From an uncultured delta proteobacterium (GTDB lineage: Bacteria; Myxococcota_A; Polyangia; Fen-1088): 64,000 bases of DNA. Every line of letters begins with the position of its first letter. Position 1 is the first letter of the stretch. The DNA is taken from contig CAVYGB010000008.1 in NCBI GenBank assembly GCA_963767925.1, positions 2,240,001 through 2,304,000 on the forward strand, in the 5' to 3' direction. Shown in pieces: positions 6,220-26,347 of this stretch. The translations under genes and the position numbers were made by a program. The notes beneath the pieces were generated by a model. That model made no database searches. It worked only from the letters and a program-made list of their open reading frames with translations, and was not told where the DNA came from.

Positions 6220-6367
6220 GAGACCTCCTCACCGACGCCGCCCACACGTGAAAAGCGGTCTTCTATTTTTTGCCGGCGGATCGCCGAAGTCAATTTCACA
6301 ATCGTGGTGATCGCGTGTACGCCATTGCGTACTTTCACGCGGCCGCCCCGCCGGCGTCGGCGACGGA

Positions 6368-7099
6368 TCAATCGTGGCGCTGGGAAAAGTTGGGCGCGCC
6401 CGCCAGGCGCGCGGCGAGCTCGAGGAGGCCGATCTCCCCCTGCACGAAGGCGTTGTGGCCTCGCCGCCGACACAGCTCTGGGTCTGCCCCGATAGGTACT
6501 GGGCGAGGGTCCCGGCCACACATGCCGCCACCTCGGGCCGGCCCGCCAGCAAGGTGGCGAGCTCCTCCTGTCCGCTCTCGATCGGAAACAACATCTGCCC
6601 GTCCCCACCGACGGGGTATCCCGAGGCGTCGATCGGCGCCCCGTTTTCCCGATCCCGGTAGCGGCCCCCCTCGTCGAAGTGCTCGAAGGGGAAGCCCATC
6701 GGATCGAAGAAGCGGTGACAGGCGCCGCAGGCCCCCTGGGCATGGGCCGCCTCGAAGCGCTCGCGGGTGGTCCTCCAGCCGGTGCCGGGCGGGGGCAGGT
6801 CGGGCACGACCGGGGGCTGCTGTGGGATCTCCGGGATTGACGAACCCGTCCTTGCTGTCGAGCGGATCGGCGATGTCGAGGGTGAAGGCGTCCTTGGCCT
6901 CGGGGAAGACGTCCCGCCCGGGTCGAAGTGCTCGGCGGGCATTCCGTGGGGGACGAAAAACAGGAGCAGCCGGCGGGGCCGCTCGGCGGGCGCCTGGGCC
7001 AGCGCGCGCCGGGACAGCTCGAGCGCCAGCGGCGCGGGGAGCCCGAGGCCGAGAGCCCGGAGGAAGGTTCCGCTGCAGCGGGCGCGAGCCCCGGCTCAT
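6368..7099 (-). pseudogene. Chimeric remnant: DUF1552-like Tat N-terminus + DUF1587-like fragment + DUF1588/DUF1585-like CxxCH C-terminus
   Basis: Pieces in different frames: TFLRALGLGLPAPLAL...RRLLLFFVPHGMPAEHFDP; DVFPE...DGFVN; TTRERFEAAH...CGACHRFFDPMGFPFEHFDEGGRYR. Confidence 0.6.
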
Positions 7100-7150
7100 G
7101 CCCCCAAGCTTGCACCATCACCGCCGGCGCGGGGAGGCGCGTCCGGTCAA

Positions 7151-8485
7151 TCAGGGCGCCGTGACGGACGGCCGACTGCCCACCGCCAGGGTGGGCACCG
7201 GCGCCGCCGCCGGGAGCTTCAGGCTCAACACGAGCAGCGCCTCGACAACGAGGCCCGCCGCCAGGAAGAGCAGCCCCCGCTCGTAGCTCTGGGAGCTGTC
7301 GCGCAGGAGGCCCATCACGTGAGGGCCCGCCCAGCCGCCCAGATTGCCCACCGAGTTGATGAGCGCGATGCCCGCGGCCGCGGCCGCGCCCCCCAGGAAC
7401 ACGGGGGGGATCGACCAGAAGGGTCCCAGGATGGAGCGCTGCCCCACCTGCGAGAGCATGAAGCTCAGCACGATGAGCGGGACGCTCTTCTGGAACGCCG
7501 CCGCCAGGGCCAGGCCGATGGCGGCGGTCATCGCGCAGGCGGCGACGTGTTTCTTGCGCTCGCCGGTGCGGTCGGAGTGCCGGCCGATCAGCACCATGCC
7601 GACCAGCGCCGCCACGAACGGCAGCGCGGTGATGCCCGCCAGCCGGAGCCCGGAGAACCCCGAGGCCTCTCGCAAGATCTTCGGCAAGAAGAGAAACACG
7701 CCGTAGGTGGCCATGTTGTTGAGAAAGTAGATCGCGCACAGGAGGATCACCTTGGGATCCCGCAAGGCCCCGAACCCGCGGTGGGCCTGCCGGGCGGTGC
7801 GCTCGGCGCGATCGCGCTCCATCTCCCGGACCAGCCACTCGCGATCGTCGGCCGGCAGCCAGTGGGCTTGCTCCGGGCGATCGGTCAGGTACTTGAGGGC
7901 GGCGAACCCCAGCACGACCGCCGGGAGGCCCTCGACGAGGAACAGCCACTGCCAGCCGTGCAGGCCGGCGACTCCGTCGAGCTTGAGCAGCCCCTCCGAG
8001 AGGGGAGCCCCCACCAGCATGGCCACCGGGATGGCCATCATGAAGAGGGCGCCGGTCTTGGCCCGCTCGCGGGCCGGGATCCAGTAGGTGAGAAAGAGGA
8101 TCATCCCCGGAAAGAAGCCGGCCTCGGCCAGGCCCAGGAGCACCCGCATGGAGAAGAAGCTCCACTGCCCCACCACGAACATCATCGCCATCGACACCAG
8201 GCCCCAGACGATCATGATCCGCGCGATCCAGATGCGCGCCCCCACCCGTTCCATGATCAGGTTGCTGGGGATCTCGAAGAGGAAGTAGCCGAGGAAGAAC
8301 AGCCCCGCCCCCTGTCCGTAAACGGCATTGCTCATCCCGAGATCTCTCTGCATCGAGTCGGCGGCGAAGCCGATATTGACGCGATCGATGTACGCAATGA
8401 CGTAACAGATGAAGATGAAGGGGACGAGCCGACCCACGACTCGCTGAAAAACTCGGCGCTCGCGCTCTTCGTTCGGCGAAGTCAT
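7151..8485 (-). CDS. MFS transporter, anion:cation symporter family (TtuB-like)
   Basis: YIDRVNIGFAA, FEIPSNLIMERVGARIWIARIM, GLAEAGFFPG, GWQWLFLVEGLP, INSVGNLGG; ~12 TM helices. Confidence 0.92.
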   Translation of the reverse strand: MTSPNEERERRVFQRVVGRLVPFIFICYVIAYIDRVNIGFAADSMQRDLGMSNAVYGQGAGLFFLGYFLFEIPSNLIMERVGARIWIARIMIVWGLVSMAMMFVVGQWSFFSMRVLLGLAEAGFFPGMILFLTYWIPARERAKTGALFMMAIPVAMLVGAPLSEGLLKLDGVAGLHGWQWLFLVEGLPAVVLGFAALKYLTDRPEQAHWLPADDREWLVREMERDRAERTARQAHRGFGALRDPKVILLCAIYFLNNMATYGVFLFLPKILREASGFSGLRLAGITALPFVAALVGMVLIGRHSDRTGERKKHVAACAMTAAIGLALAAAFQKSVPLIVLSFMLSQVGQRSILGPFWSIPPVFLGGAAAAAGIALINSVGNLGGWAGPHVMGLLRDSSQSYERGLLFLAAGLVVEALLVLSLKLPAAAPVPTLAVGSRPSVTAP

Positions 8486-8577
8486 ACCTGAATCCTCCTC
8501 GCTCGACAGCAGCGCACCCTACCACGGGCCCGGTCTCGCGAATCGAGAAGACGAAACCTGGGATACCATCCGCGGCC

Positions 8578-9621
8578 ATGCCGGCCTACGTCACCTCGCC
8601 CCGCATGCGTTATCGAGAAGAGGAGCTGTGGTTCGCCGCCTCGCTCTACGTCGGAAGCTGGGAGGAGGACTTCCACGAGCTCATGCTGAACGACGACCTG
8701 CGCATGAACGCCTACGAAAGAGCGATCAAGGCGCGGGTGCGACCGGGCATGGCGGTGGCGGACCTGGGAACGGGCACCGGCATCCTGGCGCAGTGGGCGC
8801 TGGAGGCGGGGGCCCGGGTGGTCTACGGGATCGACGTCAGCGCGCCGATCCTGCAACGGGCGGTCGAACGGATCGGCGCGGCTGGCTTCTCCGATCGCTT
8901 CCAGACGTTCGCCGCCCTCTCCTACGACGTGACCCTGCCCGAGCGGGTGGACGTCCTCCTCTCCGAGATCCTGGGAAACCGGGCGGACAACGAGGGGATG
9001 GTCGCCATCCTCAACGACGCCCGCTGGCGGTTCCTCGCCGAGGGTGGCCACATGTTGCCGAGCCGGGCGCGGTCCTGCCTCGTCCCGGTGGCGGCCGCCC
9101 AGGCCCACGCCCAGGTCTGCAGCCGGCAGTGCCAGGGGCTCTCCGATCGCTACGACCTCGACGAGCTGCTGAAGAGCGTCGGCCTGCACAGCCCCTTCCA
9201 GCTCTCCTTCGACGTCATCCTTCCCTCGGCGACCCACCTGGCCGCGCCCCTGCCCGTCGTCGACTTCGCCTTCGCGGGCGAAGACCCCGAGGACTACCGG
9301 CGGGAGCTGTCGTTCCCGGTCGACCGGGCGGGCCCCTTCACCGGCTTCAAGGGCTACTTCACCGCCGACCTGGCGCCGGGGGTGGTCCTCGACATCTCGG
9401 GAGACGACATTGCAGGACGGAAGACGAGCGACTCCTGGAAGCACAGCTACCTGCCGGTCGAGCGCCCGATCGACGTCCGTCCCGGAGACGTCATCGAGCT
9501 GACCTATGCGCGGGCCCGTCCCGCGCGCGAGGACTCCCCCTTCCGCCAGTATTATTCGTGGACCGGCGTCGTACGGCGGGACGGGCGCCCCCTGGCTCGC
9601 TTCGAGAATCAGATGACGTGA
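8578..9621 (+). CDS. SAM-dependent methyltransferase, protein arginine N-methyltransferase (PRMT)-like
   Basis: HELMLNDDLRMNAY, motif I VADLGTGTGIL, VYGID, double-E loop SEILGNRADNE, FLAEGGHMLP, GFKGYF, THW-loop equivalent DSWKH. Confidence 0.8.
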   Translation: MPAYVTSPRMRYREEELWFAASLYVGSWEEDFHELMLNDDLRMNAYERAIKARVRPGMAVADLGTGTGILAQWALEAGARVVYGIDVSAPILQRAVERIGAAGFSDRFQTFAALSYDVTLPERVDVLLSEILGNRADNEGMVAILNDARWRFLAEGGHMLPSRARSCLVPVAAAQAHAQVCSRQCQGLSDRYDLDELLKSVGLHSPFQLSFDVILPSATHLAAPLPVVDFAFAGEDPEDYRRELSFPVDRAGPFTGFKGYFTADLAPGVVLDISGDDIAGRKTSDSWKHSYLPVERPIDVRPGDVIELTYARARPAREDSPFRQYYSWTGVVRRDGRPLARFENQMT

Positions 9622-9839
9622 GCGAGCGGCGCCCGGGACGGGCGGTTCGCTCTTCACCGGCAGCGAACGGGCGGGACCGATTCCCGAAATACCGATTGAC
9701 GGAGAGCCCGGTTCGTTGGAAACGTCGAAAGGCCCCAGGTCAAAGCGAAATCCAGCGGCCTGGCAGGCCTTCCCGTGTGTCCGCGCTTTTCAAATGCTAC
9801 ACACGGGACTCACGAGTTGTGGTTTGTTAGGAGCGAGTC

Positions 9840-11411
9840 ATGACCAAACTTACTGGTCTCGCCAAGGCGATGCTCGGGCTGCTGGTTGGCGGCGCCCTGG
9901 TTGCAGCCGCCTTCACCCATGGGGATCGTCTGAAGGCCCTCATCGGGAGCGTGGGCGGCAAGAAGCCAGCGACGACGGCGTCCCCCGCCCGGGAGCGACC
10001 GCCCGGTCAGATCGTCATCGGGCTGTGCGAGTGGCCCGGGCAGATGCCCTTCGTGATCGCGAACGGGGGCCTCACCACCCAGGCCGGATCGGCCGCGGCC
10101 AGCGAAGGCCTCGACATGAAGATCGTCTTCATCGATGACCCGGTGAAGAAGAACCAGGCCCTCCTCGACGGCACCATCGACGTGGTCTGGTCGACGGTCG
10201 ACGAGATGCCGATCACGATGGCCACCTACCGCACGGCCAACGTGGCGGTGAAGGCGTTCATGCACCTCGACTGGTCCCGGGGCGGTGACGCCTGCGTGGC
10301 CAGCGCCGAGATCAAGTCGGTCGAGGATCTGCTCGGCAAGAAGGCAGCCACCCTCCTCTTTTCGCCCGAGCACACCCTGTTCGAGTTCATGATCACGAAC
10401 TCCCGCCTGACCGCCGCCCAGATGGCGCGGGTGCGCGCCGACGTCAGCTTCTCGCCCGACGATCCGCTGCACGCGCGACGCCTGTTCGTCGAGCGGAAGG
10501 TCGACCTGGCCTGCGTGTGGGAGCCGGACGTGAGCCTGGCCATCACCAGCCGTCCAGGGGCCCATCGCCTCTTCTCGACCGCCGACGCCACCGAGCTGCT
10601 CACCGACGTCCTGCTGGTTCGCCAGGAGCTGCTCGACAGCAAGCCGGCGCTCATCGAGAAGGTCGCGCGGATCTGGTTCGCCGGTGTGGCCAAGGCGGAG
10701 GCCGACCGCCCGGCGGCGGCCCGCTTCATCTCCTCGAACGTCCCGCGCTTTCGGGACGAGCTCGGTCGCGAGCAGACCCTGCGTTCGTTCGAGTGGGTCC
10801 GCTGGTCGGATCTCGCCGAGAACGTGAAGTTCTACGGCCTCGACGGGGGCCGGCCGGCCTTCGATCGCGTCTACAACCAGGCCGACGCGATCTGGATGAA
10901 CTATCCGCAGGCCGAGGTGAAGGACCGCTTCGCCCCCGTGACCTTGCGCGACGATCGGATCATTCGCCGGATCTGGGAGACCACTGGCAAGAAGGCGCCG
11001 ATCGCCCGCAACGAGAAGTACCAGGATGGCACCGCCCTCACCGGGGCCGCCATCTTTGCCAAGCCCGTCTCCATCAACTTTCGCGGTGGCAGCTCCGACC
11101 TCGACGCCGAGGCGATGGCCACCTTGAACAGCGAGCTCTTGCCCCAGCTCGAGATCGCCCGCGGCATGTACCTGCGGATCGAGGGGAACACCGACTCGCA
11201 GGGGTCGGCCAGCTCCAACCTCAAGCTCTCGGAACGACGAGCCAAGTCCATCCTGGAATACCTCGTGTCGCGCGGAATCGAGCGCACGCGCATCATCGCC
11301 CGGGGCAACGGCGCCACCCGGCCCATCGCCAGCAACCGGACCCCGGAGGGGCGCGCGCTCAATCGGCGGACCGAGGTCCTCTTCATCCCCTCGAAGCGTT
11401 CCCCGTCCTGA
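9840..11411 (+). CDS. NMT1/SsuA-type substrate-binding domain fused to C-terminal OmpA-like peptidoglycan-binding domain
   Basis: N-terminal TM/signal; EWPG, DWSRGGD, WEPD, FSTADA; C-terminal IEGNTDSQG...NLKLSERRA...NRRTE; RBS aggag upstream. Confidence 0.82.
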
Positions 11412-12383: not shown

Positions 12384-13017
12384 CCGGCTCTCTCTCCGAC
12401 TCGTCCAGGGGCGAGAAGGCCCCCCATGATGCCGGAAGTCGGTGGGATGGCAAGGAGGGATACCCGCCTGCGTCGCCGCTGCAATCGGTACCGCCGAGGC
12501 AACTCGGGGGCTATGTCCCGACCGCGGGATTTCACTTGCGTGGGCGGGCGGTTGGCCGACGCCGGGGGTGCAGTTGCCCCTTGCCTTTACCCCTGAGACC
12601 GGTTACGGGTGATCCCAAGGGCCCCTCCCTTGGCAGGCTGTCCGCAGGCCTGCAAAATCAGCGCGGTTCATTGCCGAGTACCCAACGCCGGGGCCCACCA
12701 GGGTCCCCGCGCCCGGGCCAAATTGGGGCAGGATTGGGGGCAAAACAGGCCCCAGATCAGGCCGCAAATCGCCTCAAGTCAGGCAATGACAGACCCGGTC
12801 CTCCCACGATTCTTGGCGGCGCCCGCCGTTACTGATTTTTTCCAGGAACGATACTTGGGAGCTACATGAAACGTGTTCTGCTCCAGCGGGGACGCAGCAT
12901 GATCCAGCTCACAAGACATTCCCAGGTCCGCTCTCAGCCACGCTCCAGTTGCACGCTCGCCGCTCTGTCGCGCGGGCCCGGCACGGAACGCAGCTGAGGG
13001 GCCGGCAAAGGAGCCCA

Positions 13018-13839
13018 ATGCGCCACCGAACGGCCCATACCTCACCCTGGAAGGTGGTCCTTTTCAACCAGTACAACCTGCTGTTCCTGGCGGGAGCGGC
13101 GGCCTTTTCCCTCGCCCTGGCCTCTCGCTGGCCGGTGATCATCGGCGCGGCGGGCGAGGGCCTCTGGCTGTTTGCCGCCCTCACCAGCCGGGGCGTGCGG
13201 CGCTGGGCGATTCGCCACGTGCTCGAACAGGATCGGGCCCACCGGTCCGCCGAGGGCGCCGCGGTCGTGCAAACCCTCGAGGGTGAATATGCCGCCCGCT
13301 GCGAGAGGCTCGAGACCATCGGGTCGGACATCCGCCGGCTGGTCTGGGACCGGGGGCTCGAGAGCGCCCTGTTCGCCGGGGACGAGAACCGTCTCGAGTC
13401 GCTCCTGCTCGGGTTCAGCCGGATGGCCGCCCTGCACCAGCGCCTCTCCCGGTTCGTCGGGACCTCCTCGCCGGGCCAGCTCGAGGAGGAGCTTCTGGGG
13501 CTCGGCCAGTCCCTCTCCAGCGAGAAGAATCCCTCGGTACGGTTCCTCCTCCAGCAGGCCTTGACCATCGCCCAGCGCCGCTTCGATCAACAGGAGCAGC
13601 TCGGCAGTCAGCTCCGCTTGCTGGGCGTGCGAATGGGCACCCTCGAGATGTCGCTCGACTACCTCCGCTCCCAGATCTTCAGCGGTCGATCGAGACAGGA
13701 GGTCTCGGCCGAGATCGCCCAGATGGTCACCAGCCTCGGGTTCCTGATGGAGATGGAGGCCGAGGTGAACACCTCGGTCGAGCGCATCCAACCCAAGGTG
13801 GTGCCCGTCAGCCAGCCCCAGATCGTGCGCGGCTCGTAA
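13018..13839 (+). CDS. Hypothetical membrane protein, two N-terminal TM helices plus long coiled coil
   Basis: ORF 12949..13839 with likely ATG 13018; hydrophobic N-terminus followed by helical Leu/Glu/Gln-rich region. Confidence 0.6.
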   Translation: MRHRTAHTSPWKVVLFNQYNLLFLAGAAAFSLALASRWPVIIGAAGEGLWLFAALTSRGVRRWAIRHVLEQDRAHRSAEGAAVVQTLEGEYAARCERLETIGSDIRRLVWDRGLESALFAGDENRLESLLLGFSRMAALHQRLSRFVGTSSPGQLEEELLGLGQSLSSEKNPSVRFLLQQALTIAQRRFDQQEQLGSQLRLLGVRMGTLEMSLDYLRSQIFSGRSRQEVSAEIAQMVTSLGFLMEMEAEVNTSVERIQPKVVPVSQPQIVRGS

Positions 13840-13844
13840 GACCG

Positions 13845-14633
13845 TCACGGGCCCGGGACCAGGCGATCGTCGGCGATCACGCCTCGGCGCCGCAGCTCAC
13901 GCTTGAGGCCGGCGTACCAGCGGTCGCCCAGGAGGTCGTGCGCCTCGCATTGTCGCGAGATCTCGGCCTGGAGCGCCTCGCTGGGGGACTGGAACATCGA
14001 GCGACAGAGCTGGGGCTCGAGGTTGGACAGCGGCAGGACGTAGCCCTGGACCCCCGGCGTGGTCGCCAGGCAGAGATGCTCCCAGCCCTGGAAGACCGGA
14101 ACCCCGGTCCCGGCTGACACGAGGGCCCGGGTCAGCTCCACCGAGCCGCTGGAGTCCTTGACCCCCACCACGTCTCCCGACCGGCACAGCTCGACGAGGG
14201 TCTCGAGTCCCAGCGCGGTCCCGGCGAGCTTTGGCTCGTTGTAGAGAAAGAGCGGCAGTCCGCTCTCCCGGGCGATGGACCGGTACTGGGCCCGCAGCTC
14301 AACCTCCGAGAGCCCCCGGCCGAAGAGCGGGGGGACCACCACCGCCTCCACAGCCAGCTCCCGGGCCAGTTTGGCCCGCTCGATCACCTCGGCGATGGTC
14401 GGCAACACGATGCCCGCCAGGACCGGCAAACCCCGGGCGAACCGGCGCGTCCAGGTCACCATGTCCCGCCACTGCGCCGCCGACAAGCGCCAGCCTTCGC
14501 CCGAGCTGAGCGCCGGGATCAAGCCGGACGAGGCTGGCCGGACCGATTCGATCAGGCGCTCCACGCTGGCGGCGCAGACCTCTCCGCCGGCAGCCAGGGG
14601 GGTTATCAAAGGGACGATCACATCCTGGTACAC
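13845..14633 (-). CDS. DHDPS/NAL-family class I aldolase, RohR-like retro-aldolase
   Basis: VIVPLITP, LSSGEG, LYNEP (Tyr), VVGVKDSSG (Schiff-base Lys); GTG start 1 nt after the upstream stop. Confidence 0.8.
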   Translation of the reverse strand: MYQDVIVPLITPLAAGGEVCAASVERLIESVRPASSGLIPALSSGEGWRLSAAQWRDMVTWTRRFARGLPVLAGIVLPTIAEVIERAKLARELAVEAVVVPPLFGRGLSEVELRAQYRSIARESGLPLFLYNEPKLAGTALGLETLVELCRSGDVVGVKDSSGSVELTRALVSAGTGVPVFQGWEHLCLATTPGVQGYVLPLSNLEPQLCRSMFQSPSEALQAEISRQCEAHDLLGDRWYAGLKRELRRRGVIADDRLVPGP

Positions 14634-14634
14634 G

Positions 14635-15138
14635 TCAGGCTCCTCCGAAGACGAGGGGAACACGAAGCTGGAGGGCGTTCTGGTAGAGCGCCTCCAGCTC
14701 CCGGGGGAAAGCAACCTCGCCCCGGACCTCCGGCGGCGTGCGGATCGGCAAGTCCACCGCCCCCAGGAGGGTGGGATCGAGGGTGTAGACCAGGGCCCCG
14801 CGCTCGAGGGCCCGCGCCACCAACAGCCGGTGCAGCACCGGGAGGCGCTGCAACCGGCTGTCGGAGGTCGCCAGCCGCAAGGTGCTGTCCTCGTACCCCT
14901 CCCGGCTCAGGCAGCGCAGGCTCTGCAGGCTGTCCATGAACGGGTAGTAGAGATCCTGCACCTCGCGGCTGAATGTCCAGATGATGTCGTCGCAGCGGCC
15001 GACGTGATCCCAGGTCATCAGGATCACGGAATCCCGTCGGCTCGCCACGAAGTTCTTGCACCGGAGCCGCTGGGGCTCGGCGGCCGCGTTCATCCCGAGG
15101 AAGACGCTGTAGTCGATATATTCGCGCTCACTGTCCAT
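14635..15138 (-). CDS. Small DUF6190-like protein, putative RohQ-like cyclodehydratase
   Basis: IDYSVFLGM...RLRCKNF...HVGRCDDIIW...QDLYYPFMD; lies between RohP-like and RohR-like genes, overlapping rohP-like by 11 nt; assignment from recalled family motif plus context. Confidence 0.65.
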   Translation of the reverse strand: MDSEREYIDYSVFLGMNAAAEPQRLRCKNFVASRRDSVILMTWDHVGRCDDIIWTFSREVQDLYYPFMDSLQSLRCLSREGYEDSTLRLATSDSRLQRLPVLHRLLVARALERGALVYTLDPTLLGAVDLPIRTPPEVRGEVAFPRELEALYQNALQLRVPLVFGGA

Positions 15139-16354
15139 ACCGTTGGATCTCCAGCGCGAGCTGCCGCGCGGCCGCCCGGAACATCCTCGGCTCCCGGGCC
15201 AGCGCCACCCGGACGAAGCGGTTGCCCTTGTGGCGCTCGTTCCAGAAGAAGAAGTTCCCCGGCAGGACGTAGACGTCCCGGGCGAGCAGCTTGCGATGGA
15301 AGGTGAGGGCGTCCATGCCGAGCCCCGAGATATCCAGCCAGGCCACGCTGACGTTCACCCGTGGCTTGCAGTCCCGCACCGGCGTGTCGGCCAGGGCCAG
15401 GGCGAGCTCGCTCCGGTTGGTGGTGATGACGTTGCGGACCGAGGCGAACCCGTCGCGCTCCGAGTCACGCAGGTAGCGGGTCAACATGTTCAGAACGAAG
15501 GGCGAGACATTGAGCAGCACGCTGGTGTGGATGTCGTAGATCGCAGGGTACATGTCCCGGCTGCTCATGAGGATGGCGGCCTTGGCGTCCTGGAGCGGCC
15601 AGACCTTGCCGGTGTCCTCGATGACGATGTACGAGACGCCCGACGATTCGAGCAGCTCGTAGACGTCGAACCATTGCGCCGAACCATCCATCAGCGCAAA
15701 CGAGGCGAAGCAACGGTCGATTATCAACAGCTTGCCGTGATCCACGCAAAAACGAACCACCTCCTCGAAGCCGCGACGTCCCTCCGTCAACAGGGTGAAG
15801 CCGGTCGGGTTGTTGGGATCGACGAGGAAGAGCGCGTCGGTCGTCACCTTCTCCCGCAGGTTCTGGTAGATCTTGTCGACGTCGGCGAGGTCGCTCTCCG
15901 GGAGAGAATTCAACGGAATTCGCTGGTTCTTCAACAGATCGTGCAAATTGTCGAAGCAGGGCTCGATCAGCGTGACCGACATCTTCCGTTGCATGAGGTA
16001 CATGGCCGCCACCATGGTCGAGATCGAGGAGGCGTAGGCCAGCAGGGCCCGGCCGGTCTGCAGCGCGGTCGGCTGCCGTTGCAACTCGAAGAACGCGGTA
16101 ATGAAGTCCTGCTCGATGTCCCGCTGCAGGCTACCTTCCGACTCGTACCAGAGGTCGGGGAGGCTCTGGACGATCTGTTGCTGGGTCAGCGATTGCCGCT
16201 GATGGGTGTGGGCGTCGGCGAGGTTGTGGCGCCGGGTGAGAGCGTCGATCTCGTGCTGGGTGATGTCTGCGTGTCGGTCGGCCAGCGGATTGGGAGCAGG
16301 CTTGGAGGGGCGACGGGCAACGGCAGGACGAGAGAAGGAAGAAGATGAGATCAT
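15128..16354 (-). CDS. PLP- and O2-dependent L-arginine oxidase/hydroxylase, RohP/MppP/Ind4 family (closest to RohP)
   Basis: DITQHEIDAL...NLADAHTHQRQS...LPDLWYESE, YASSISTMV, IEPCFDNL, VDPNNPTG, IEDTGKVWP (PLP Lys), HTSVLLNVSPF; AGGAGG 6 nt before ATG 16354. Confidence 0.88.
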   Translation of the reverse strand: MISSSSFSRPAVARRPSKPAPNPLADRHADITQHEIDALTRRHNLADAHTHQRQSLTQQQIVQSLPDLWYESEGSLQRDIEQDFITAFFELQRQPTALQTGRALLAYASSISTMVAAMYLMQRKMSVTLIEPCFDNLHDLLKNQRIPLNSLPESDLADVDKIYQNLREKVTTDALFLVDPNNPTGFTLLTEGRRGFEEVVRFCVDHGKLLIIDRCFASFALMDGSAQWFDVYELLESSGVSYIVIEDTGKVWPLQDAKAAILMSSRDMYPAIYDIHTSVLLNVSPFVLNMLTRYLRDSERDGFASVRNVITTNRSELALALADTPVRDCKPRVNVSVAWLDISGLGMDALTFHRKLLARDVYVLPGNFFFWNERHKGNRFVRVALAREPRMFRAAARQLALEIQRYGQ

Positions 16355-16410
16355 GGAAAGCCTCCTGGGCTGGATGTGAACGGGGGTGCGGCTTTTCCTA
16401 AGCAAGTCTG

Positions 16411-16446
16411 GGTTATAATGCTTCGTATAATCAATTTATGCCACGG
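16411..16446. promoter_or_regulatory. AT-rich element upstream of the rohP-like gene (TTATA-N8-TATAA inverted repeat), likely promoter/operator
   Basis: ggttataatgcttcgtataatcaatttatg, ~60-90 nt upstream of the start, highly atypical for this GC-rich DNA. Confidence 0.45.
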
Positions 16447-16923
16447 AGCGCCTGGGTGTTGGAAGGTTCCAATCGCTGCGGGCGAGCCTGATTCGAGCGT
16501 AGGTGCCTGTACGTAACGTGTGTGAACCATCTACTGCGGGCATCACACGGGTGCTCATGGCCCCGTCGGGGGACCCTCCAGGTGGACCCAACAGCGCCCG
16601 ACATTCCCGGAGTGGGGCACACAACGGTCGACACCTGGGCCCTTGGATCGTCTACCAGAGTCAGGTCCCCCTGCAAAACCGCCGAGCCAATTGTTACCCC
16701 CTACACGTGCAATCAAAACTGAGTCCCCGTGTGGCGATCGCTCGGCCGCTCTCTGTACGTCAGGCCCCGAAGCTGGGCTTTTTCCCCGCCCTCTCTACCG
16801 TCCTGGCGGGAGGCCAGCGTGACGTCGGCTCACCGAGGAAGACACGGCCCTACATATCGCCTCAACGACAATTGCTGAGGACGCCCGACAGGGGACAGCC
16901 CCGAGACGGCGCTCGGCGCGCGG

Positions 16924-17799
16924 TCAGCGGGTGACGAGGGTGCCGACGCCCCTCTCGGTGAACAGCTCGACCACCACGCTATGAGGGGCTCGGCCGTCCA
17001 CGACGTGTACGGCTTCGACCCCGCCCTCGATCGCACGCAGGATGGCCTGGGCCTTGACGGCCATGCCGCCTTTCACCGCGCGCCCCTCCTGCAAGCGGCC
17101 GCCGAGATCGGTCGCCCGCAGCTGGGTCAAGAGCTGCCCGTTCTCGTCGAGGATGCCGGGCACGTCGGTCAGATAGATGAGCTTCTGCGCCTTGAGGGCC
17201 ACCGCGATCTCGGCCGCGGCCACGTCGGCGTTGATGTTGTAGGTGGTCCCGTCGAGGGCGGCGCCGATGGGAGAGACGACGGGGATGTAGCTCTTGTCGA
17301 TGCACATCTCGAGCACGTCCGGGTGGACGGCCTCGACGTCGCCGACCAGGCCGAGGTCGGGTTTACCCGGGCGAGGGGCCTGCTTGCGGGCCTGCAGGAG
17401 CCGCCCGTCTTTACCCGAGAGGCCCATCGCCGAGCCACCCAGCGCCTGGATGAGACCGACGATCTCGCTGTTCACCCGCCCGGTGAGCACCATCTCGACG
17501 ACCTTCATCTCCTCGGGACCGGTGATCCGCTGGCCGTCGACGAACTCGCTCTTCTGCCCCAGTCGCTCGAGGGTGCGGTTGATCTCCGGTCCTCCGCCGT
17601 GGACCACCACCGGCCGCAGGCCGGCCGCCCGCAGCAGCACCACGTCCTGGGCGAAGGCTCGCTTGAGCTCGGGATCCACCATGGCAGCGCCCCCGTATTT
17701 GATGACCGCCCGGGTGCCGGAGAAGCGCTGGATGTAGCGGAGCGCCGAGACCACCAGCTCGCGCTGATTGGCCAGGCTGTCGTCGGAGGTGTCGTTCAT
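16924..17799 (-). CDS. argB: Acetylglutamate kinase
   Basis: VIKYGGAAM, VVVHGGGPEI, FVDGQRIT, GLSGKDG, YNINAD, LTDVPG, GGMAVK, ELFTERGVGT. Confidence 0.96.
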   Translation of the reverse strand: MNDTSDDSLANQRELVVSALRYIQRFSGTRAVIKYGGAAMVDPELKRAFAQDVVLLRAAGLRPVVVHGGGPEINRTLERLGQKSEFVDGQRITGPEEMKVVEMVLTGRVNSEIVGLIQALGGSAMGLSGKDGRLLQARKQAPRPGKPDLGLVGDVEAVHPDVLEMCIDKSYIPVVSPIGAALDGTTYNINADVAAAEIAVALKAQKLIYLTDVPGILDENGQLLTQLRATDLGGRLQEGRAVKGGMAVKAQAILRAIEGGVEAVHVVDGRAPHSVVVELFTERGVGTLVTR

Positions 17800-18893
17800 G
17801 GCAGATGACCCACGAGATCGAGGAGCCCCGAGGTTTCGGGGAGGCCGAACATCAGATTGGCGTTCTGGACCGCCTGGCCGGCGGCGCCCTTGACCAGGTT
17901 GTCCATCGAGGCGAACACGACGGCGATCCGTCGGTCGGCGTCGGCCCTGGCGCCCATCACGACCCGGTTGGTCCCCACCGTGGCGGCCAGGTTGACCTTC
18001 TCGGCATCGGTCTGGCGCAGGAACGGCTTTCCCTCGACGAAGGTGGCCAGGGCCCGCGTGACCGCTGCGTTGGCATCGCCGGCCGCGGCCGCCGAGGTGA
18101 GGCGGGCATAAGCGGTGGCGAGGATCCCCCGGCGCACCGGCAGCAGGTGGGCGGTGAAGACGACCCGCAGGCCCGGGCTCCCTCCCAGGGCCAGGATGCG
18201 CTCGATCTCCGGCGTGTGCTGATGGCGCAGGACCCGGTAGGCCCGGAAGTCGCCGTCCACTTCGGAGAAGGACAGCTCCTCGGTGGCCTTGCGCCCCGCC
18301 CCCGTGGTCCCGCTCTTGGCGTCGATGATGATCGAGCCCGGGTCGACCAGCCCGGCCCGGAGCAAGGGCAACACCGCCAGGGCCGAGACCGTGGGGTAGC
18401 AGCCGGGATTGGAGACGAGGCGGGCGGCGGGCAGCCGCTCGGCCGTCCCGGTCGCCTCGGGCAAGGAGTAGACCGCCTCGCCGAGCAGGCCCGGCTGGCC
18501 ATGGGCGAACCCATACCAGGCCGGGTACTCGGCCGCCGACAACCGGAAGCCGCCCGACAGATCGACGACCCGCGTGCCCGCTGCCAGCGCCCGCGGGGCC
18601 AGCTCGATCGAGGCTTCGGGCGGGGTGCAGAGGAACAGCACCTCGACCTCGCCGAACGCGTTTTTCCCGTCGGCTTGCGAGAGGCAGGTGACCTCGGCGG
18701 CCGGGCCAGGCAAGGCCAGGCGGTCCCCCAGGCTGGCGCCGGCCCACTTGTCCGAGGTCGCCATCACCGGCGCAAACACCGGGTGTCGCGCCAGGATGCG
18801 CACCAGCTCCATCCCGGAGTAGCCAGAGACACCGACGATGCCGGCGCGGATTCGACGCTCACCCACGGACGCCGCGTTCGGCCCTTTGATCAT
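17796..18893 (-). CDS. argC: N-acetyl-gamma-glutamyl-phosphate reductase
   Basis: GIVGVSGYSG, VVDLSGGFR, VSNPGCYPT, DAKSGTTGAGR, HQHTPEI, DNLVKGAAGQAVQNAN; overlaps argB start (ATGA). Confidence 0.96.
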   Translation of the reverse strand: MIKGPNAASVGERRIRAGIVGVSGYSGMELVRILARHPVFAPVMATSDKWAGASLGDRLALPGPAAEVTCLSQADGKNAFGEVEVLFLCTPPEASIELAPRALAAGTRVVDLSGGFRLSAAEYPAWYGFAHGQPGLLGEAVYSLPEATGTAERLPAARLVSNPGCYPTVSALAVLPLLRAGLVDPGSIIIDAKSGTTGAGRKATEELSFSEVDGDFRAYRVLRHQHTPEIERILALGGSPGLRVVFTAHLLPVRRGILATAYARLTSAAAAGDANAAVTRALATFVEGKPFLRQTDAEKVNLAATVGTNRVVMGARADADRRIAVVFASMDNLVKGAAGQAVQNANLMFGLPETSGLLDLVGHLP

Positions 18894-18904
18894 GGCGGGC
18901 AACT

Positions 18905-20125
18905 ATGGCGGCCTTCGCCCGGCCAGACAAGGGGCGACGCCGTCGTGCGACGTCGTGCGCAAGCCCGGACGCTCGCGCCACCATCGCCCGTGTCGCCCGG
19001 CAGTGGGCCTCTCCCCGGCCCGACCCGGGTTATCCTCCACGCGCCTTGCCCCCGGCCTTCCTCGCACTCCTGCTGCTTGGCCAGCAGCCCGTCCTCGCCG
19101 ACGCGCCCTCGCCCGGTTCGCCTGCCGTGCCGGCGCCGGGGCCGGCCCGGGGGATCCTGCCCACCGCGGCGGCGATCGTACCGGGCCTCCTGCTTCACGG
19201 CAGCGGCCACTTCGTAGCAGGAGACCGCCGGACCGCGCTCCGGCTCCTGGCGGCCCAGGGCATAGGGCTGGGCGGCATGGTGGCGGGTCTGGCTGGCCTG
19301 GCGGTGACCGGGGCCTCGCCCCGCTTCGTTTCCCCCATCATCCTGCTCACGGCCGCCGGCGCGGCCCTCTTCACCACCTCCGCCCTCGCCGACCTCTACG
19401 GCGTGCTCGCCCCGCCCGGTGGCACCGGAGCGGCCCCCGCCGATCTCCCCGCCCTGGAAGCAGGCGGAGGCGCCCTGCTGGTGCGGAACCCGGTCTTCCC
19501 CTACCGCTGGCTGGCCGCCGTCACGCTGGACGCCCGCGCCGGCCGCTGGCGCCTGTGGCCGCGGCTGTACGGAACCGCAAACGGCCAGACGGTGCGGGCG
19601 GAGCTGCGGGGCAGTTACCGCCTCACCGGCCTCCGCCCCAGCTCCGTCGACCTCTCGGGCGCCCTGGTGCACCACCGGGAGGGCGGGGACGTGATCCCGT
19701 TCGGCACCACCCTGGCGGAGCTGAGCCTCGACGGGCGCACCCGGCTCGACGCCCTGGCGCCGTCCCTGGCCGGCTCGTTCCTGGACTGGAGCGGCGGACT
19801 GGCCTTCGGCGGCATGTACTTCGGCGGCGCCGTCGACGCGCTCGAGGCCACCGACCTGCTGCTGGCCCGCTTCGGCTTCGGGTTCTTCCTCGGCCGTTCG
19901 AGCGACCCCCGGGGCGAGGTGGTGTTCGGCTACGACCACCGGCACGACGACTTTGCCGGTGGCCTCAAGATGCCCGGTCTCGGCAGCGGCCCCGCGGGGA
20001 GCTTTGGCCTCGAGGCTTCGATCTACGTCCGGCCCCGCTGGGGCCTGCGGGCGGTGGCCCGGGCCGGGTCGGCCCACGTGGTCGGGCTGTCGCTCCTGTA
20101 TCGGCGTCCGCCGGAGGGACGATGA
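18905..20125 (+). CDS. Hypothetical exported/membrane protein with possible C-terminal beta-barrel
   Basis: 406-aa ORF; PGLLLHGSGHF plus TM helices, then alternating beta-strand pattern; start uncertain; ATGA-coupled to next gene. Confidence 0.55.
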   Translation: MAAFARPDKGRRRRATSCASPDARATIARVARQWASPRPDPGYPPRALPPAFLALLLLGQQPVLADAPSPGSPAVPAPGPARGILPTAAAIVPGLLLHGSGHFVAGDRRTALRLLAAQGIGLGGMVAGLAGLAVTGASPRFVSPIILLTAAGAALFTTSALADLYGVLAPPGGTGAAPADLPALEAGGGALLVRNPVFPYRWLAAVTLDARAGRWRLWPRLYGTANGQTVRAELRGSYRLTGLRPSSVDLSGALVHHREGGDVIPFGTTLAELSLDGRTRLDALAPSLAGSFLDWSGGLAFGGMYFGGAVDALEATDLLLARFGFGFFLGRSSDPRGEVVFGYDHRHDDFAGGLKMPGLGSGPAGSFGLEASIYVRPRWGLRAVARAGSAHVVGLSLLYRRPPEGR

Positions 20126-21903: not shown

Positions 21904-24031
21904 TCAGACCGTCGCGGGGGCGCTGCGGAAGTTGTGGACCACGTCCGGCGTCTTGCCCATCGCCTCGCGCCGGGACAGCCGGATCTTGCCGGTGGCCCGG
22001 TCGATGCCGATCACCTTGACCATCATCTCGTCGCCTTCTTTGCAGACGTCCTGGACCTGGCGCACGCGCTTCTCGTCGAGCTCGCTGATGTGCACGAGTC
22101 CGTCGGTGCCCGGCAGGATCTCCACGAAGGCGCCGAACTCGGCGATGCGTCGGACCACCCCCATGTAGAACTCGCCCACCTCGGGTTCGGTGGTGAGGCC
22201 CTTGATGATGTCGATGGCCTTCTGGGCCATGATGCCGTCGGGCGAGGCTATGTGGACCGTGCCGTCGTCCTCGACGTCGATGGCCACACCGGTCTGGGCG
22301 GTGATGCCCCGGATGGTCTTGCCTCCCGGACCGATGATCTCCCGGATCTGGTCGGGCTTGACCTGGATGGTGAAGATCCGCGGGGCGTACTTGTTCAGCT
22401 CCTCGCGGGAGGTGGTCAGCGCCTCGGCCATCTTGCCGAGGATGTGGACCCGACCTTCGCGGGCCTGGTTGAGCGCCTGCTCAAGGATCTGGCGGGTCAG
22501 CCCCTGGATCTTGATGTCCATCTGGACGGCGCTGATCCCCTTCTTGGTGCCACAGACCTTGAAGTCCATGTCGCCGAGGTGGTCCTCGTCGCCGAGGATG
22601 TCGGAGAGCACCGCGAGGCGATCGCCTTCCTTGATGAGGCCCATGGCGATGCCGGCCACGGGGGTCGTGAGCGGGACCCCGGCGTCCATCAGGGCCAGCG
22701 AGCCGCCGCAGACCGAGGCCATCGACGAGCTGCCGTTGGACTCCAGGATCTCGGACACGACCCGGATCGTGTAGGGGAAGTCGGCCTCCGAGGGTAACAC
22801 CCGGGTCAGGGCGCGCTCGGCGAGGTGGCCGTGGCCGGTCTCGCGCCGGCTGGCCCCGCGCAGCGGCTTGACCTCGCCCGTCGAGAAGGGCGGAAAGTTG
22901 TAGTGGAGCATGAAGCGCTTCTCGATCTCGGCGGTGAGGCCTTCGATGTGTTGCGCGTCCTGCTTGGTCCCCAGGGTGGCGGTGACGAGGGCCTGGGTCT
23001 CGCCCCGGGTGAACAGCGAGGAGCCGTGGGTCCGGGGCAGCACCCCGACCTCACAGCTGATGGCCCGGATGTCGGTGGTGGCCCGGCCGTCGATGCGGCG
23101 CCCGGTGTTGAGCACCAGCTCGCGCAGGTGCTTCTTCTTGGCCGAGTCGAAGGCCTCCTTCAGCTCGGGATCGCGCTCGGGAAACTCGGCCTTGAGGCTC
23201 TCGAGGATCTCGCTGCCCACCGCATCGAGCGCGGCGTAGCGCTCCTGCTTGTCCCGGATCGCCATGGCGGCCTGGATCTTGGGGCCCGCGCTGCCCGACA
23301 CCCGCTCGACGATGATGGGATCTTTGGCCGGCGGCACGAACTCGCGCTTTGGCTTGCCCACCGCGGCCCGCAGCTTCTCCTGCAGATCGATAATAGGCTG
23401 GGCCGCCTTGTGGGCGAACATCAGCGCGTCGATGAGCACGTCTTCGGTGACCTCGGCGGCCCCGCCCTCCACCATGACGATGGCGTCGCGGCTGGCAGCG
23501 ACGACGAGATCGAGCTCCGATTCCTCCCGCTGCTTGAAGGTCGGATTGACCACGTATTGGCCGGCGATCCGCCCGACCCGGACCGCGGCGAAGGGTCCCG
23601 CCCAGGGGATGTCCGAGAGGTGCAAGCGCCATCGAGGCCCCGGTCATGGCGAGGACGTCGGTGGGGTTGTCCTTGTCGGCCGACAGGACGGTGGCGATGA
23701 CCTGGCTGTCGAAGCGCCACCCCTTGGGGAACAGCGGCCGGCAGGGGCGGTCGATGAGGCGGGCGGTGAGCACTTCCTGCTCGGTCAGCCGGCCTTCGCG
23801 CTTGAAGTAGCCGCCCGGGATCTTACCGGCGGCCGACGTCTTCTCGAGGTAGTCGCAGGTCAGCGGCATGAAATCGATGCCGGGACGCACGTTCGACGAA
23901 GCCACGGCGGTGACGAGGACCATCGAGTCGCCGTAGCGGATGACCACCGAGCCGTCGGCCTGCTTGGCCATTCGACCGGTCTCGATCGTGAGCTCTCGGT
24001 CGCCGAAGCCCACTCCTTCGCGTACAAACAT
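21904..24031 (-). CDS. pnp: Polyribonucleotide nucleotidyltransferase (frameshift ~23625)
   Basis: [55 protein letters not shown] and S1 domains; split across two ORFs. Confidence 0.96.
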
Positions 24032-24156
24032 TACAGCACGTCTCCTTGTGCGAAGGCCCCGATACCCCTTCGTCCCTCATCTCGAGGGTCCGCGCGGCAC
24101 CCGCGGCGACCGAACCATCGGGAAAAAGGATGAACGCGGCACCAGGACCGTTGTGG

Positions 24157-24181
24157 AAAAAGGCGTGCCGGGCACCACGCC
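24157..24181 (-). terminator. Intrinsic terminator after rpsO
   Basis: Minus strand GGCGTG-loop-CACGCC followed by TTTTT. Confidence 0.6.
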
Positions 24182-24217
24182 CAGCACGCATATCGAAACG
24201 GTATGACGGCTCGGACG

Positions 24218-24487
24218 CTACTTGCGGATGCCGAGCTCCTGGATGAGCGCGCGGTAGCGCTCGACGTTCGTGCCTTTGAGGTAATCGAGGAGTCGTCGGC
24301 GCTGCCCGACGAGCATCAGGAGACCACGACGCGAGTGGTGGTCTTTGGCGTGCACCCGGAAGTGCTCGGTGAGGTAGTTGATCCTCTCGGAGAGGAGCGC
24401 TATCTGAACCTCGGGCGAGCCCGTATCGCCGGGCCCGCGCGCAAACTTTCTGACCACTTCTGCTTTTCGTACTGCGGCGAGAGCCAT
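24218..24487 (-). CDS. rpsO: 30S ribosomal protein S15
   Basis: [12 protein letters not shown]...[23 protein letters not shown]; 89 aa. Confidence 0.98.
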
Positions 24488-24601
24488 GAACTCACACTCT
24501 TTCTCGTCTTTTCTGTCGTGCTTTCAGCGCTTTAGATTGGGCTACACTTTCCTACAAGAAGGCCATCGAAGTCAACCCACCCGTCGGGAATCCGACCAAC
24601 C

Positions 24602-25531
24602 TCAGAGCTGATCCCGAGCAAAAACCCGCACGGGTTGGGCCCCCTCGGCTGTGACCTCCGCCACGGCCAGCAAGGTCTCGTCGTCCCGCACGACCCGGAC
24701 CCGACCCCGGGTCCCCTCCGGGAGCCCGACGGAGGTAGCCGCCACGCGTTTGCCCTGGACCAGAGCCGCCGCGGCGCTGGCCTCCGCCCGGGCCAGCGGC
24801 AGGTGCGCCAGGGCGAGGTGCAGGGACACCATGGGCAGCGGCTCCCGGCGGTCGATGCGTGCCTCGAGCTCGGGCAGCGTGAGGGCGTCGGCCAGCCGGA
24901 ACGGACCCGAAGCGACGCGACGCAAAGCGGTCAGGTGCGCCAGGGTGCCGACCCCGCGCCCCAGGTCGGCCGCCAGCACACGGACGTAGGTTCCCTTCGA
25001 GCAGCGCAGCCGGAAGCGGGCCGAATCGGGCGGCAGCCAGGCCAGGAGCTCCAGCTCGTGGATCTGGACCTTCCGCGACGAACGTTCGATCTCGATGCCC
25101 TCGCGGGCATAGCTATAAAGAGGCCGGCCCTGGTGCTTGAGCGCCGAGTGCATGGGCGGCACCTGCTCGATCTCGCCCCGCAGCCCCGCGAGGGCCTGGC
25201 CCAGAAGCTCGGCAGACAGGTGATCGGTGGGGGCCGTGCCGACCACGTTCCCGGTGGCGTCGTGGCTGTCGGTGGCCACCCCGAAACGCACGGTGGCCTC
25301 GTATTCCTTGTCGGCGTCGAGGAGGAAGGCAGCCAGCTTCGTGGCTTCGCCCACGCACACGGGAAGAACGCCCGAAGCGAAGGGATCCAGGGTCCCGCCG
25401 TGTCCGCACTTCAGCTTGCGCAGGGAGAGGCCGCTGGCCGCCGGAAGGCCCCGGCACACGAGAGCCGCCACCCGCCTCAAGACGGCAAACGAGGACGGGC
25501 CCTCGGGCTTGTCGACGATCAGCACGCCCAT
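24602..25531 (-). CDS. truB: tRNA pseudouridine(55) synthase
   Basis: VDKPEG, GHGGTLDPFASGVL, QVPPMHSALK, CSKGTYVR. Confidence 0.96.
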   Translation of the reverse strand: MGVLIVDKPEGPSSFAVLRRVAALVCRGLPAASGLSLRKLKCGHGGTLDPFASGVLPVCVGEATKLAAFLLDADKEYEATVRFGVATDSHDATGNVVGTAPTDHLSAELLGQALAGLRGEIEQVPPMHSALKHQGRPLYSYAREGIEIERSSRKVQIHELELLAWLPPDSARFRLRCSKGTYVRVLAADLGRGVGTLAHLTALRRVASGPFRLADALTLPELEARIDRREPLPMVSLHLALAHLPLARAEASAAAALVQGKRVAATSVGLPEGTRGRVRVVRDDETLLAVAEVTAEGAQPVRVFARDQL

Positions 25532-25539
25532 CGCCTGGC

Positions 25540-25971
25540 TCAGCCCTCTGGCTCCCCCTTCCCGGGCGGGAGCTCGCCGGCGGGCGGATCGCCCTCGGGC
25601 GCCGCCGTGGCGGGTGTCTCCCGGGCAACCTCACGCAAGAGGGCGTCCACCTTCTCCTCCTGCTCGAAGACCCGGTCGATCTCGAAGCTCACCGTGGGGA
25701 TGGTGCGCACCGAGAGCTCCTGACCGAGCCGGCGGCGGAGGTAGCCGCTCGCGTGGTCCAGGCCTTTGCGCACCCGCTCGAGCGCGGCGGCGTCGGCGGC
25801 GTGCACGGTGAAGAGCGCGGTGGCCTGGCGCAGGTCCCCGGTGAGCCGCACGTGGGTGATCGTGATGAGGCCCGCGTCCTGCACCCGAGGATCCTTGATC
25901 TCCTGGCGGGTCACGATCTCCCCCAGGATCTCCCGGATCTCCATCGCGAGCCGAGGTACGCGCTCTTTCAT
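25540..25971 (-). CDS. rbfA: Ribosome-binding factor A
   Basis: IKDPRV...ITITHVRLTGDLRQA...ASGYLRRRLG...RTIPTVSFEID; position between infB and truB. Confidence 0.9.
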   Translation of the reverse strand: MKERVPRLAMEIREILGEIVTRQEIKDPRVQDAGLITITHVRLTGDLRQATALFTVHAADAAALERVRKGLDHASGYLRRRLGQELSVRTIPTVSFEIDRVFEQEEKVDALLREVARETPATAAPEGDPPAGELPPGKGEPEG

Positions 25972-25975
25972 TCGC

Positions 25976-26296
25976 CTATCTTGAAGCCGAGATCGTTCTC
26001 GCGCCAAGGCGTCGTTGAAGGTCTGGATCTCCCGCTCGGAGTTCGTCACCTCGGCCTGGGATCGCACGAAGCGGATGATCTCGTCGAGCGCAGACTCGAC
26101 GAAACGCCGCTCGTTGCCCACCACTGCCAGGCCCAGCACGGCGCGCTGCCAGAGGTCGTTGTCCTCGACCTCGGCCGCGGCCACGTTGAACTTCTGGCGC
26201 AGCCGGTCCTTCACCCGGCGCAGGACCATCCGCTTGTCCTTCAGCGAATGGCTGTCGCGGCAAGAACAAGGTGAGGCGCGCGATCCCGACCGTCAC
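25976..26296 (-). CDS. DUF503 (YlxP-like) protein, frameshifted
   Basis: VGIARLTLFLP / SHSLKDKRMVLRRVKDRLRQKFNVAAAEV...DLWQRAVLG across frames. Confidence 0.8.
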   Translation of the reverse strand: MTVGIARLTLFLPRQPFAEGQADGPAPGEGPAAPEVQRGRGRGRGQRPLAARRAGPGSGGQRAAFRRVCARRDHPLRAIPGRGDELRAGDPDLQRRLGARTISASR

Positions 26297-26347
26297 GTCG
26301 ACACTCCCGGGCGCGCTCGGGGCGCTTCGGGCCGCTGACTGCGCGGC

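Follow-up and report, generated by a model that had tools for sequence, protein, structure and literature searches.

The nitroimidazole drugs have a natural parent compound, azomycin, whose five-gene pathway is known from work on actinomycetes and Pseudomonas. We analysed a stretch of 64,000 nucleotides (nt) of contig CAVYGB010000008.1, from a genome assembly (genome G000) whose host, a soil bacterium, fits a member of the Myxococcota; the whole stretch is called the window below, and positions are those of the window unless another contig or locus is named. Three open reading frames (ORFs) on its minus strand make up an operon, rohP-rohQ-rohR, at 13845-16354. The locus is a shortened variant of the known azomycin pathway with a previously unremarked methyltransferase companion. 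In our reading, to which we give a probability of about 0.62, the rohP-rohQ-rohR genes would turn L-arginine into 2-aminoimidazole and pyruvate, the pathway would stop there, and the cluster would have lost rohS and rohT. The most likely product would then be 2-aminoimidazole rather than azomycin.

In the azomycin pathway, according to a summary of Hedges & Ryan 2019, RohP is an arginine oxidase and RohR a retro-aldolase, RohQ is a cyclodehydratase that gives 2-aminoimidazole, and RohS is the N-oxygenase that gives azomycin (PMC10724926). The window locus resembles the rohPQRST azomycin clusters of Streptomyces eurocidicus, Streptomyces cattleya, Kitasatospora azatica and Pseudomonas sp. DF41 in the order rohP-rohQ-rohR, in the tight coupling of the genes and, as far as 2-aminoimidazole, in its predicted chemistry. 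It differs from them in three respects. Neither RohS nor RohT was detected in the locus or in the assembly, so that the azomycin nitro group cannot form by the known route; a methyltransferase gene is displaced by 4.2 kb; and, unlike the actinobacterial and Pseudomonas clusters, the locus has a host that appears to belong to the Myxococcota.

A roh pathway that effectively ends ahead of the nitro step has one described parallel. Pseudomonas syringae pv. tomato DC3000 produces no azomycin, and its RohS has no activity in vitro (PMC13133933). However, DC3000 still carries rohS and rohT, whereas the window lineage is without both and has kept the three-gene state in two species. Further afield, MppP (enduracididine), MilM (mildiomycin) and Ind4/Plu4 (indolmycin type) resemble RohP in fold and in the first reaction that they carry out on L-arginine, but their genes, unlike the window rohP, are not trailed by those of a DUF6190 cyclodehydratase and a DHDPS-type aldolase.

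Gene products of the operon

The three genes are intact and coupled, as an original prediction for this DNA had proposed. rohP shares 11 nt (15128-15138) with rohQ, an overlap also present in the rohPQRST locus of Sphaerimonospora cavernae (L001); the rohQ stop codon (14635-14637) is separated by a gap of 1 nt from the GTG start of rohR (14631-14633); and an AGGAGG motif sits 7 nt 5' of the rohP ATG. The operon also ends where it had been said to end, 5 nt from a convergent plus-strand ORF that stops at 13839. The context of the rohP ATG and the AGGAGG ribosome-binding site are kept in a congener (genome G401), and conservation of the leader between the two genomes is limited to short islands and to the ribosome-binding site and start. 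All three frames match protein families well above chance, and the motifs first noticed in the rohP product, DITQHEIDALTRRHNLADAHTHQRQS, EPCFDNL and EDTGKVWP, are present in its translation.

A comparison of the first protein with MppP and with desaturases, in line with the suggested check against MppP and Ind4, placed it far closer to RohP. Over residues 18-406 it matches PDB entry 6c3a (E 6e-143, 479.6 bits), which bears the title 'Uncharacterized protein' and which we take to be S. cattleya RohP. Its matches to 7n79, presumably a Plu4-type desaturase (1.1e-54, 189.1 bits), and to MppP 5dj1 (1.9e-52, 181.7 bits) score far lower. The top NCBIfam match is MppP TIGR04462, at 168.9 bits, below the cut-off of 450 bits, and Pfam Aminotran_1_2 is matched at 2.8e-11. 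The lysine of the EDTGK motif is invariant in an alignment of seven RohP sequences and aligns with that of the solved RohP, as found in a fold-type I enzyme dependent on pyridoxal 5'-phosphate (PLP) with a Schiff-base lysine. The protein is 58% identical to S. cavernae RohP and likewise 58% identical to MilM of Streptomyces rimofaciens (P0118), which serves mildiomycin biosynthesis (PMC12464687).

The middle gene product belongs to DUF6190 (PF19689; 1.4e-50, 172.1 bits, cut-off 25) and matches PDB entry 9c5w, 'Cyclodehydratase RohQ', at 2e-22 over residues 7-160, and its proposed relatedness to RohQ is thereby borne out. It retains every one of the 14 alignment columns at which 12 RohQ sequences do not vary, and it is 41% identical to its counterpart in the S. 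cavernae locus. The third product, which had been described as a DHDPS-fold aldolase, does match Pfam DHDPS (PF00701; 2.7e-29, 102.3 bits) and is 51% identical over 259 amino acids (aa) to the S. cavernae RohR, both proteins having the same length of 262 aa. It has the class I aldolase fold, and the lysine of its VGVKDSSG motif pairs in the alignment with a lysine of the 3na8 chain that we take to be the Schiff-base lysine of the DHDPS family. Because it scores only 95.1 bits against the dapA equivalog, whose cut-off is 206, it is not DapA.

In the S. cavernae locus, rohP, rohQ and rohR are followed by two more genes. The product of one matches the solved PbrRohS at 5e-48; that of the other is a small Rieske protein, taken as RohT, whose counterpart in a metagenome locus (L023) matches Pfam Rieske. 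On the sequence comparisons above, the three window genes are orthologues of rohP, rohQ and rohR, and the assignment to an azomycin-type operon holds. By orthology, RohP would be a PLP- and O2-dependent L-arginine oxidase/4-hydroxylase, RohQ a guanidinoacetaldehyde cyclodehydratase and RohR a DHDPS-fold class I retro-aldolase.

Searches for rohS and rohT, and inheritance of the three-gene set

The original prediction had likened RohS to AurF. According to PMC13133933, RohS is instead a heme-oxygenase-like di-iron enzyme (HDO; PF14518). The host assembly amounts to 9.34 Mb in 13 contigs and was scored 83.8% complete and 5.0% contaminated. A RohS protein query against it gave a best E value of 0.06, and a profile of 12 RohS sequences found nothing at E up to 1 in either the host genome or that of the congener. 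Run as a positive control on two genomes that had themselves contributed sequences to it, this profile gave 4.7e-122 and 5.6e-130, matches that arise by construction; it also found a distant relative there at 1.8e-17. The AurF family (PF11583) had no match in the assembly, and a RohT query returned only weak generic Rieske matches there (best 5.9e-4), none of them near the locus. Thus, neither a RohS-type HDO N-oxygenase nor a RohT Rieske protein next to rohS was found in the assembly, in keeping with the predicted lack of both genes, and the genome-wide search for AurF/RohS-like N-oxygenases that had been proposed yielded no AurF family member and no RohS orthologue. In the congener, there is no rohS or rohT within 18 kb of the roh genes.

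A single PF14518 protein is encoded in the host genome, on contig C1 (G000:C1:75714-76232, 91.3 bits). In a PDB search it is closest to CADD (1.4e-8) and BesC (5.3e-8), with no match to RohS or SznF; the RohS profile misses it at E up to 1, and it shares 26% identity with RohS over 128 aa. Its gene is followed by a Cupin_2 gene, and genes of the DUF3014 and DUF1552 families flank the two (L006, G000:C1:74214-77732; 987-2238 of that locus, minus strand). The congener has one weak PF14518 match, at 29.6 bits.

The congener belongs to the same genus, and its genome is 9.2 Mb in size, in 870 contigs, and 86% complete. Its gene order is MFS (major facilitator superfamily) transporter, OmpA/NMT1-like, PilZ, convergent gene, rohR, rohQ, rohP, an opposite-strand DUF1592-family gene, argB, argC. 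Between the two genomes, rohP, rohQ and rohR are 84, 63 and 72% identical, with ratios of non-synonymous to synonymous divergence (dN/dS) of 0.15, 0.30 and 0.24, and their synonymous divergence (dS, 0.65-0.89) lies in the same range as that of the flanking arg, OmpA and PilZ genes. The roh genes have therefore been vertically inherited and are under purifying selection. A dip of overall GC content to 0.60-0.63 across rohP is due to codon positions 1 and 2. Recent transfer was rejected as its cause, since third-position GC in rohP, rohQ and rohR (0.87-0.90) is the same as in the neighbours (0.89-0.92); the dip reflects amino-acid make-up.

The host itself was assessed with the MYXO-CTERM sorting signal (TIGR03901), which to our knowledge is confined to Myxococcota. 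Fifteen matches over the cut-off in the host genome, against none in 14 control genomes, agree with the myxobacterial origin first proposed. GltE was rejected as a taxonomic marker, as it was matched in 10 of the 14 control genomes. Parts of the window occur in soil-metagenome DNA runs, with a best share of 0.31, and there was no RNA run among the runs listed.

Related genes are rare around this host. RohP and RohQ searches were each positive in two of the 89 genomes of the order, which equals the family; RohP was found in three of 401 genomes of a class sample and, in a phylum sample of 401, in the host genome itself only. Besides the host and the congener, the positive genome of the class sample is G576 (8.5 Mb, from a different family), which has the full rohPQRST set and, after it, a methyltransferase gene resembling protein arginine methyltransferases (PRMTs; L114, G576:C1:42000-61999, at ~6310-11079). 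Its Roh proteins are closest to the gammaproteobacterial type, and roh genes have therefore entered the class at least twice. Judged by database names, the cultured myxobacterium Sorangium sp. So ce1128 also has RohP (P0047), the methyltransferase (P0206) and RohS (P0313), all listed on a 16.27 Mb contig. The statement that no myxobacterial example had been described stands for the literature, in the accessible parts of which we found no paper on roh genes in myxobacteria or on a nitro-less roh operon, and no paper found names DUF6190; as regards genomes, it has to be qualified by the full rohPQRST set of G576 and by the Sorangium entries. Mapping of the insertion site in other genera was uninformative: in G482 the OmpA-like gene is next to the convergent one, with no argB/argC close by, and G433 holds only a distant paralogue.

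A survey of rohPQR-only loci, also suggested beforehand, covered 86 loci (five from species genomes, that of the congener, and 80 from metagenomes, the best 80 of 137 confirmed), which were scored by tblastn for rohP, rohQ, rohR, rohS and rohT (P, Q, R, S and T). Thirty loci carry S and/or T, in all 30 within ~3 kb of rohP on the same stretch; 46 are too short to judge; and 10 lack S and T given at least 1.5 kb of flank. The latter are the congener's locus, L030 and eight loci with the order P-R or P-R-Q. L030 was not counted as a P-Q-R locus without S/T, as it has 496 nt upstream only and its nearest relatives keep S-T detached (upstream in L029, after a gap in L040). In L023, a metagenome contig of 4245 nt, rohP is followed directly by rohS and rohT (295-2657), and neither rohQ nor rohR occurs among these genes or on the other 1.6 kb of the contig.

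We built a RohP tree of 76 rows (87 rows less six duplicates and five under 330 aa) by a quick IQ-TREE search, with support from the SH-like approximate likelihood ratio test (SH-aLRT) only and midpoint rooting without an outgroup. The window and congener sequences pair with a support of 100 on a long stem (0.57), nested in a clade of 37 rows (SH-aLRT 87), of which 19 carry S/T. Loss of rohS and rohT in the window's lineage would be the simplest reading of this placement. A separate 20-row clade (support 100) holds all P-R(-Q) loci, in which rohP-rohR is sometimes followed by rohQ. None of its 20 rows has S/T, six of them having flank enough to judge. Its contigs have a GC content of 0.40-0.49, with MFS or LysE transporters and serine recombinases or integrases nearby. 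The third ORF of L053 (142 aa) was rejected as a RohQ (hhalign probability 0.3), and that of L073 is likewise not RohQ-like. Nitro-less roh cassettes are thus not unique to the window lineage, as this separate metagenome clade is also without rohS and rohT.

The methyltransferase and the surroundings of the operon

The original prediction had overlooked a roh-linked gene in the window (Table 1) for a PRMT-like methyltransferase dependent on S-adenosylmethionine (SAM). It lies 4.2 kb from rohR, on the opposite strand, with three unrelated genes between. The product has the PRMT fold and the SAM motif; its closest solved relatives are PRMT6 and PRMT2 (~2e-20), and both glutamates of one PRMT loop, presumably the guanidine-binding double-E loop, align in it. 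It is 52% identical over 345 aa to the product of the gene after rohT in G576. Elsewhere, its orthologues stand on the same strand beside rohP or rohT. Their identity is 46-58% where the match is full-length, and reads higher or lower in two that are partial because they lie at contig ends. Such a gene is present in 18 of the 30 surveyed loci with S and/or T (three of the 18 being copies of one sequence), in 2 of the 46 too-short loci, in none of the 10 loci without S/T and in none of the 22 loci of the P-R(-Q) clade (eight of them among the 10, the rest in the too-short class).

A PRMT-like match at 1e-20 turns up in 66 of the 401 genomes of the class sample, a tally that includes a weak paralogue in an unpublished genome (G715) on which nothing rests. 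Only the host genome and G576 exceed 1e-100, the next best match being at 1.3e-42 with 40% identity. The congener has only a 33% paralogue. In the gap between its MFS and OmpA genes, which is syntenic with the window gene, a small search gave a 29-aa trace (L019, 3272-3355) with 48% identity at an E value of 0.041, which a deleted methyltransferase copy may have left behind.

RohP has 23 close relatives of 66-88% identity, mostly from metagenomes. Four of them (contigs of 10871, 9939, 22019 and 3333) lie on a contig equal in size to that of a methyltransferase relative, and none on a contig equal in size to that of a RohS relative (among the best 120 of 237 RohS relatives), equal size being an indirect sign of the same contig. 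Among 95 more distant RohP matches, 13 share a contig size with one of those best 120 of 237. This pattern hints at presence of the methyltransferase, and absence of S and T, throughout the window-type clade. One Streptomyces protein (P0219) joins the methyltransferase to a Rieske domain, and RohS is fused to such a domain in cyanobacteria and metagenomes (P0257, P0260, P0262, P0314, P0315 and others). These fusions fit RohT as the redox partner of RohS, with the methyltransferase in the same unit.

Methylation of a free guanidine in an HDO pathway has a precedent in streptozotocin biosynthesis (SznE/StzE with SznF). SznE is a free-arginine guanidino methyltransferase that works with the HDO enzyme SznF (PMC11705231), and SznF is related to RohS (PMC13133933). 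The window methyltransferase, with its PRMT fold, may be comparable to SznE; unlike in the SznE/SznF pair, the HDO partner is absent from the host genome. PMC13133933 and PMC12713392 speak of a five-gene roh cluster, and the word 'methyltransferase' does not occur in either.

Table 1. Positions of the roh operon and its associated features in the window, and loci of the separate RohP clade
Feature	Position or loci	Strand	Remarks
rohP	15128-16354	minus	408 aa; ORF 15128-16405; conserved ATG start at 16354
rohQ	14635-15138	minus	167 aa, DUF6190
rohR	13845-14633	minus	262 aa; GTG start at 14633; ORF 13845-14714
Operon leader/promoter region	16355-16923	minus	569 nt, AGGAGG ahead of rohP ATG
PRMT-like SAM methyltransferase	8578-9621	plus	347 aa; Pfam PrmA, PRMT5_C, Methyltransf_25
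P-R(-Q) clade loci	L050, L053/L055, L071/L072, L073, L087, L098 and 14 shorter loci		metagenome contigs

The neighbours within ~10 kb of the operon are argC/argB, OmpA/NMT1-like, PilZ, MFS transporter, dUTPase and polynucleotide phosphorylase (PNPase) genes, with no biosynthetic genes among them. The argC and argB genes (16924-18902, minus strand; ATGA stop/start overlap, argB ATG at 17799) directly precede the roh operon in the same orientation, in the window as in the congener. In the latter, the opposite-strand DUF1592-family gene stands between argCB and rohP, and the roh operon is therefore not co-transcribed with argCB there. No RNA family, and thus no guanidine or other riboswitch, came up when 12500-19500 was compared with Rfam at E up to 1, and a consensus scan of 13500-17100 for sigma-70 promoters and terminators gave no site. 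Further along, at 21904-29227, several housekeeping ORFs look cut or fused: the PNPase ORF has 573 aa only and is without the first RNase PH domain, initiation factor IF-2 is apparently split (26348-26710 and 26783-29227), and one ORF (25540-26229) joins DUF503 and RbfA. These may be indel errors in the assembly, whose completeness score of 83.8% is low for one in just 13 contigs.

Proposed pathway, rival explanations and meaning

By orthology to the reconstituted Streptomyces and Kitasatospora enzymes, RohP with PLP and O2 would convert L-arginine to 4-hydroxy-2-ketoarginine, with release of H2O2. A retro-aldol cleavage by RohR would then give pyruvate and guanidinoacetaldehyde, whose cyclodehydration to 2-aminoimidazole RohQ would accelerate. 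With neither a RohS N-oxygenase nor a RohT Rieske partner, no nitro group would be added in this lineage. Most likely, an ancestor of the genus acquired a cluster of the methyltransferase-rohPQRST type, from which rohS and rohT were lost. As a conjecture, one inversion with a breakpoint between the methyltransferase gene and rohP might have turned an order such as that of L032, L034 and L037 (methyltransferase, then P-Q-R) into the present layout. In the least certain step, an N-methyl product may arise by action of the methyltransferase on arginine or on the 2-aminoimidazole ring.

Several observations weigh against this scheme. MilM is as close to the window RohP (58-60%) as the actinobacterial RohPs are, so that the identity of RohP alone does not fix the pathway, and the call therefore rests on the adjacent rohQ and rohR. 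Both the host and the congener genome are incomplete, and the absence of rohS is for this reason not proven; a non-homologous N-oxygenase (a Rieske enzyme of the PrnD type, a flavin type, or the contig C1 HDO beside the cupin) may stand in for it. The node that places the window-congener pair is an unresolved fork (support 83-87) in a midpoint-rooted tree, so loss, as opposed to never having gained the genes, is the direction we infer. The methyltransferase gene, finally, stands apart from the operon in the opposite orientation and is lacking in the congener, and may for these reasons be a relic without a role.

Other fates of the products have to be considered. 2-Aminoimidazole or guanidinoacetaldehyde might be an intermediate from which enzymes encoded elsewhere build a larger natural product, or which they decorate beyond methylation. 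The genome is large (9.3 Mb), and the surviving methyltransferase gene nearby shows that tailoring goes with roh genes, as in the 18 of 30 loci with S/T; we nevertheless consider this unlikely, because biosynthetic genes are wanting within ~10 kb of the operon and because the three-gene unit is self-contained in the P-R-Q metagenome cassettes too. It is also quite improbable that azomycin is still made, through an unlinked N-oxygenase non-homologous to RohS, be it the C1 HDO with its cupin, a Rieske enzyme or a flavin enzyme. The one PF14518 protein in each congener and the several Rieske-domain proteins in the genome could be candidates, and the succession of HDO and Cupin_2 genes loosely recalls the HDO-plus-cupin make-up of SznF. 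However, the C1 HDO is nearest to CADD and BesC, has no PDB match to RohS or SznF and none with the RohS profile at E up to 1, and is encoded on another contig, whereas S/T stand close to rohP in all 30 surveyed loci that have them; nor was an AurF family member found.

Finally, the operon might serve O2-dependent breakdown of arginine, with pyruvate used for growth, RohQ detoxifying guanidinoacetaldehyde and 2-aminoimidazole as waste. Pyruvate is indeed produced at the RohR step, according to PMC10724926, and the operon lies beside argC-argB in both congeners. We regard such a role as very unlikely. It would recover only three of the six carbons and one of the four nitrogens of arginine while making H2O2, and the operon has no linked genes for an aldehyde dehydrogenase, a guanidino-hydrolase or an uptake system. 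The rarity of the genes in the order and class samples is a pattern typical of specialised metabolism, and argCB are biosynthetic and, in the congener, parted from rohP by the opposite-strand gene.

We therefore retain 2-aminoimidazole as the favoured end point. The window lineage indicates that the first three azomycin steps can be inherited and kept under selection alone, which implies that 2-aminoimidazole has a use of its own. Should free arginine or the imidazole ring be the substrate of the methyltransferase, the products of some 'azomycin' clusters may be N-methyl compounds. A more tentative proposal, towards which we incline less than to its opposite, is that 2-aminoimidazole, perhaps N-methylated by the PRMT-like enzyme, might be a deliberate secreted end product of soil Myxococcota, with at least two separate roh lineages being without rohS and rohT (that of the window and the low-GC P-R-Q clade found beside exporters and recombinases). 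If this is true, the five-gene roh cluster would often really be a six-gene cluster, and simple 2-aminoimidazoles would be a widespread, overlooked class of bacterial small molecules.

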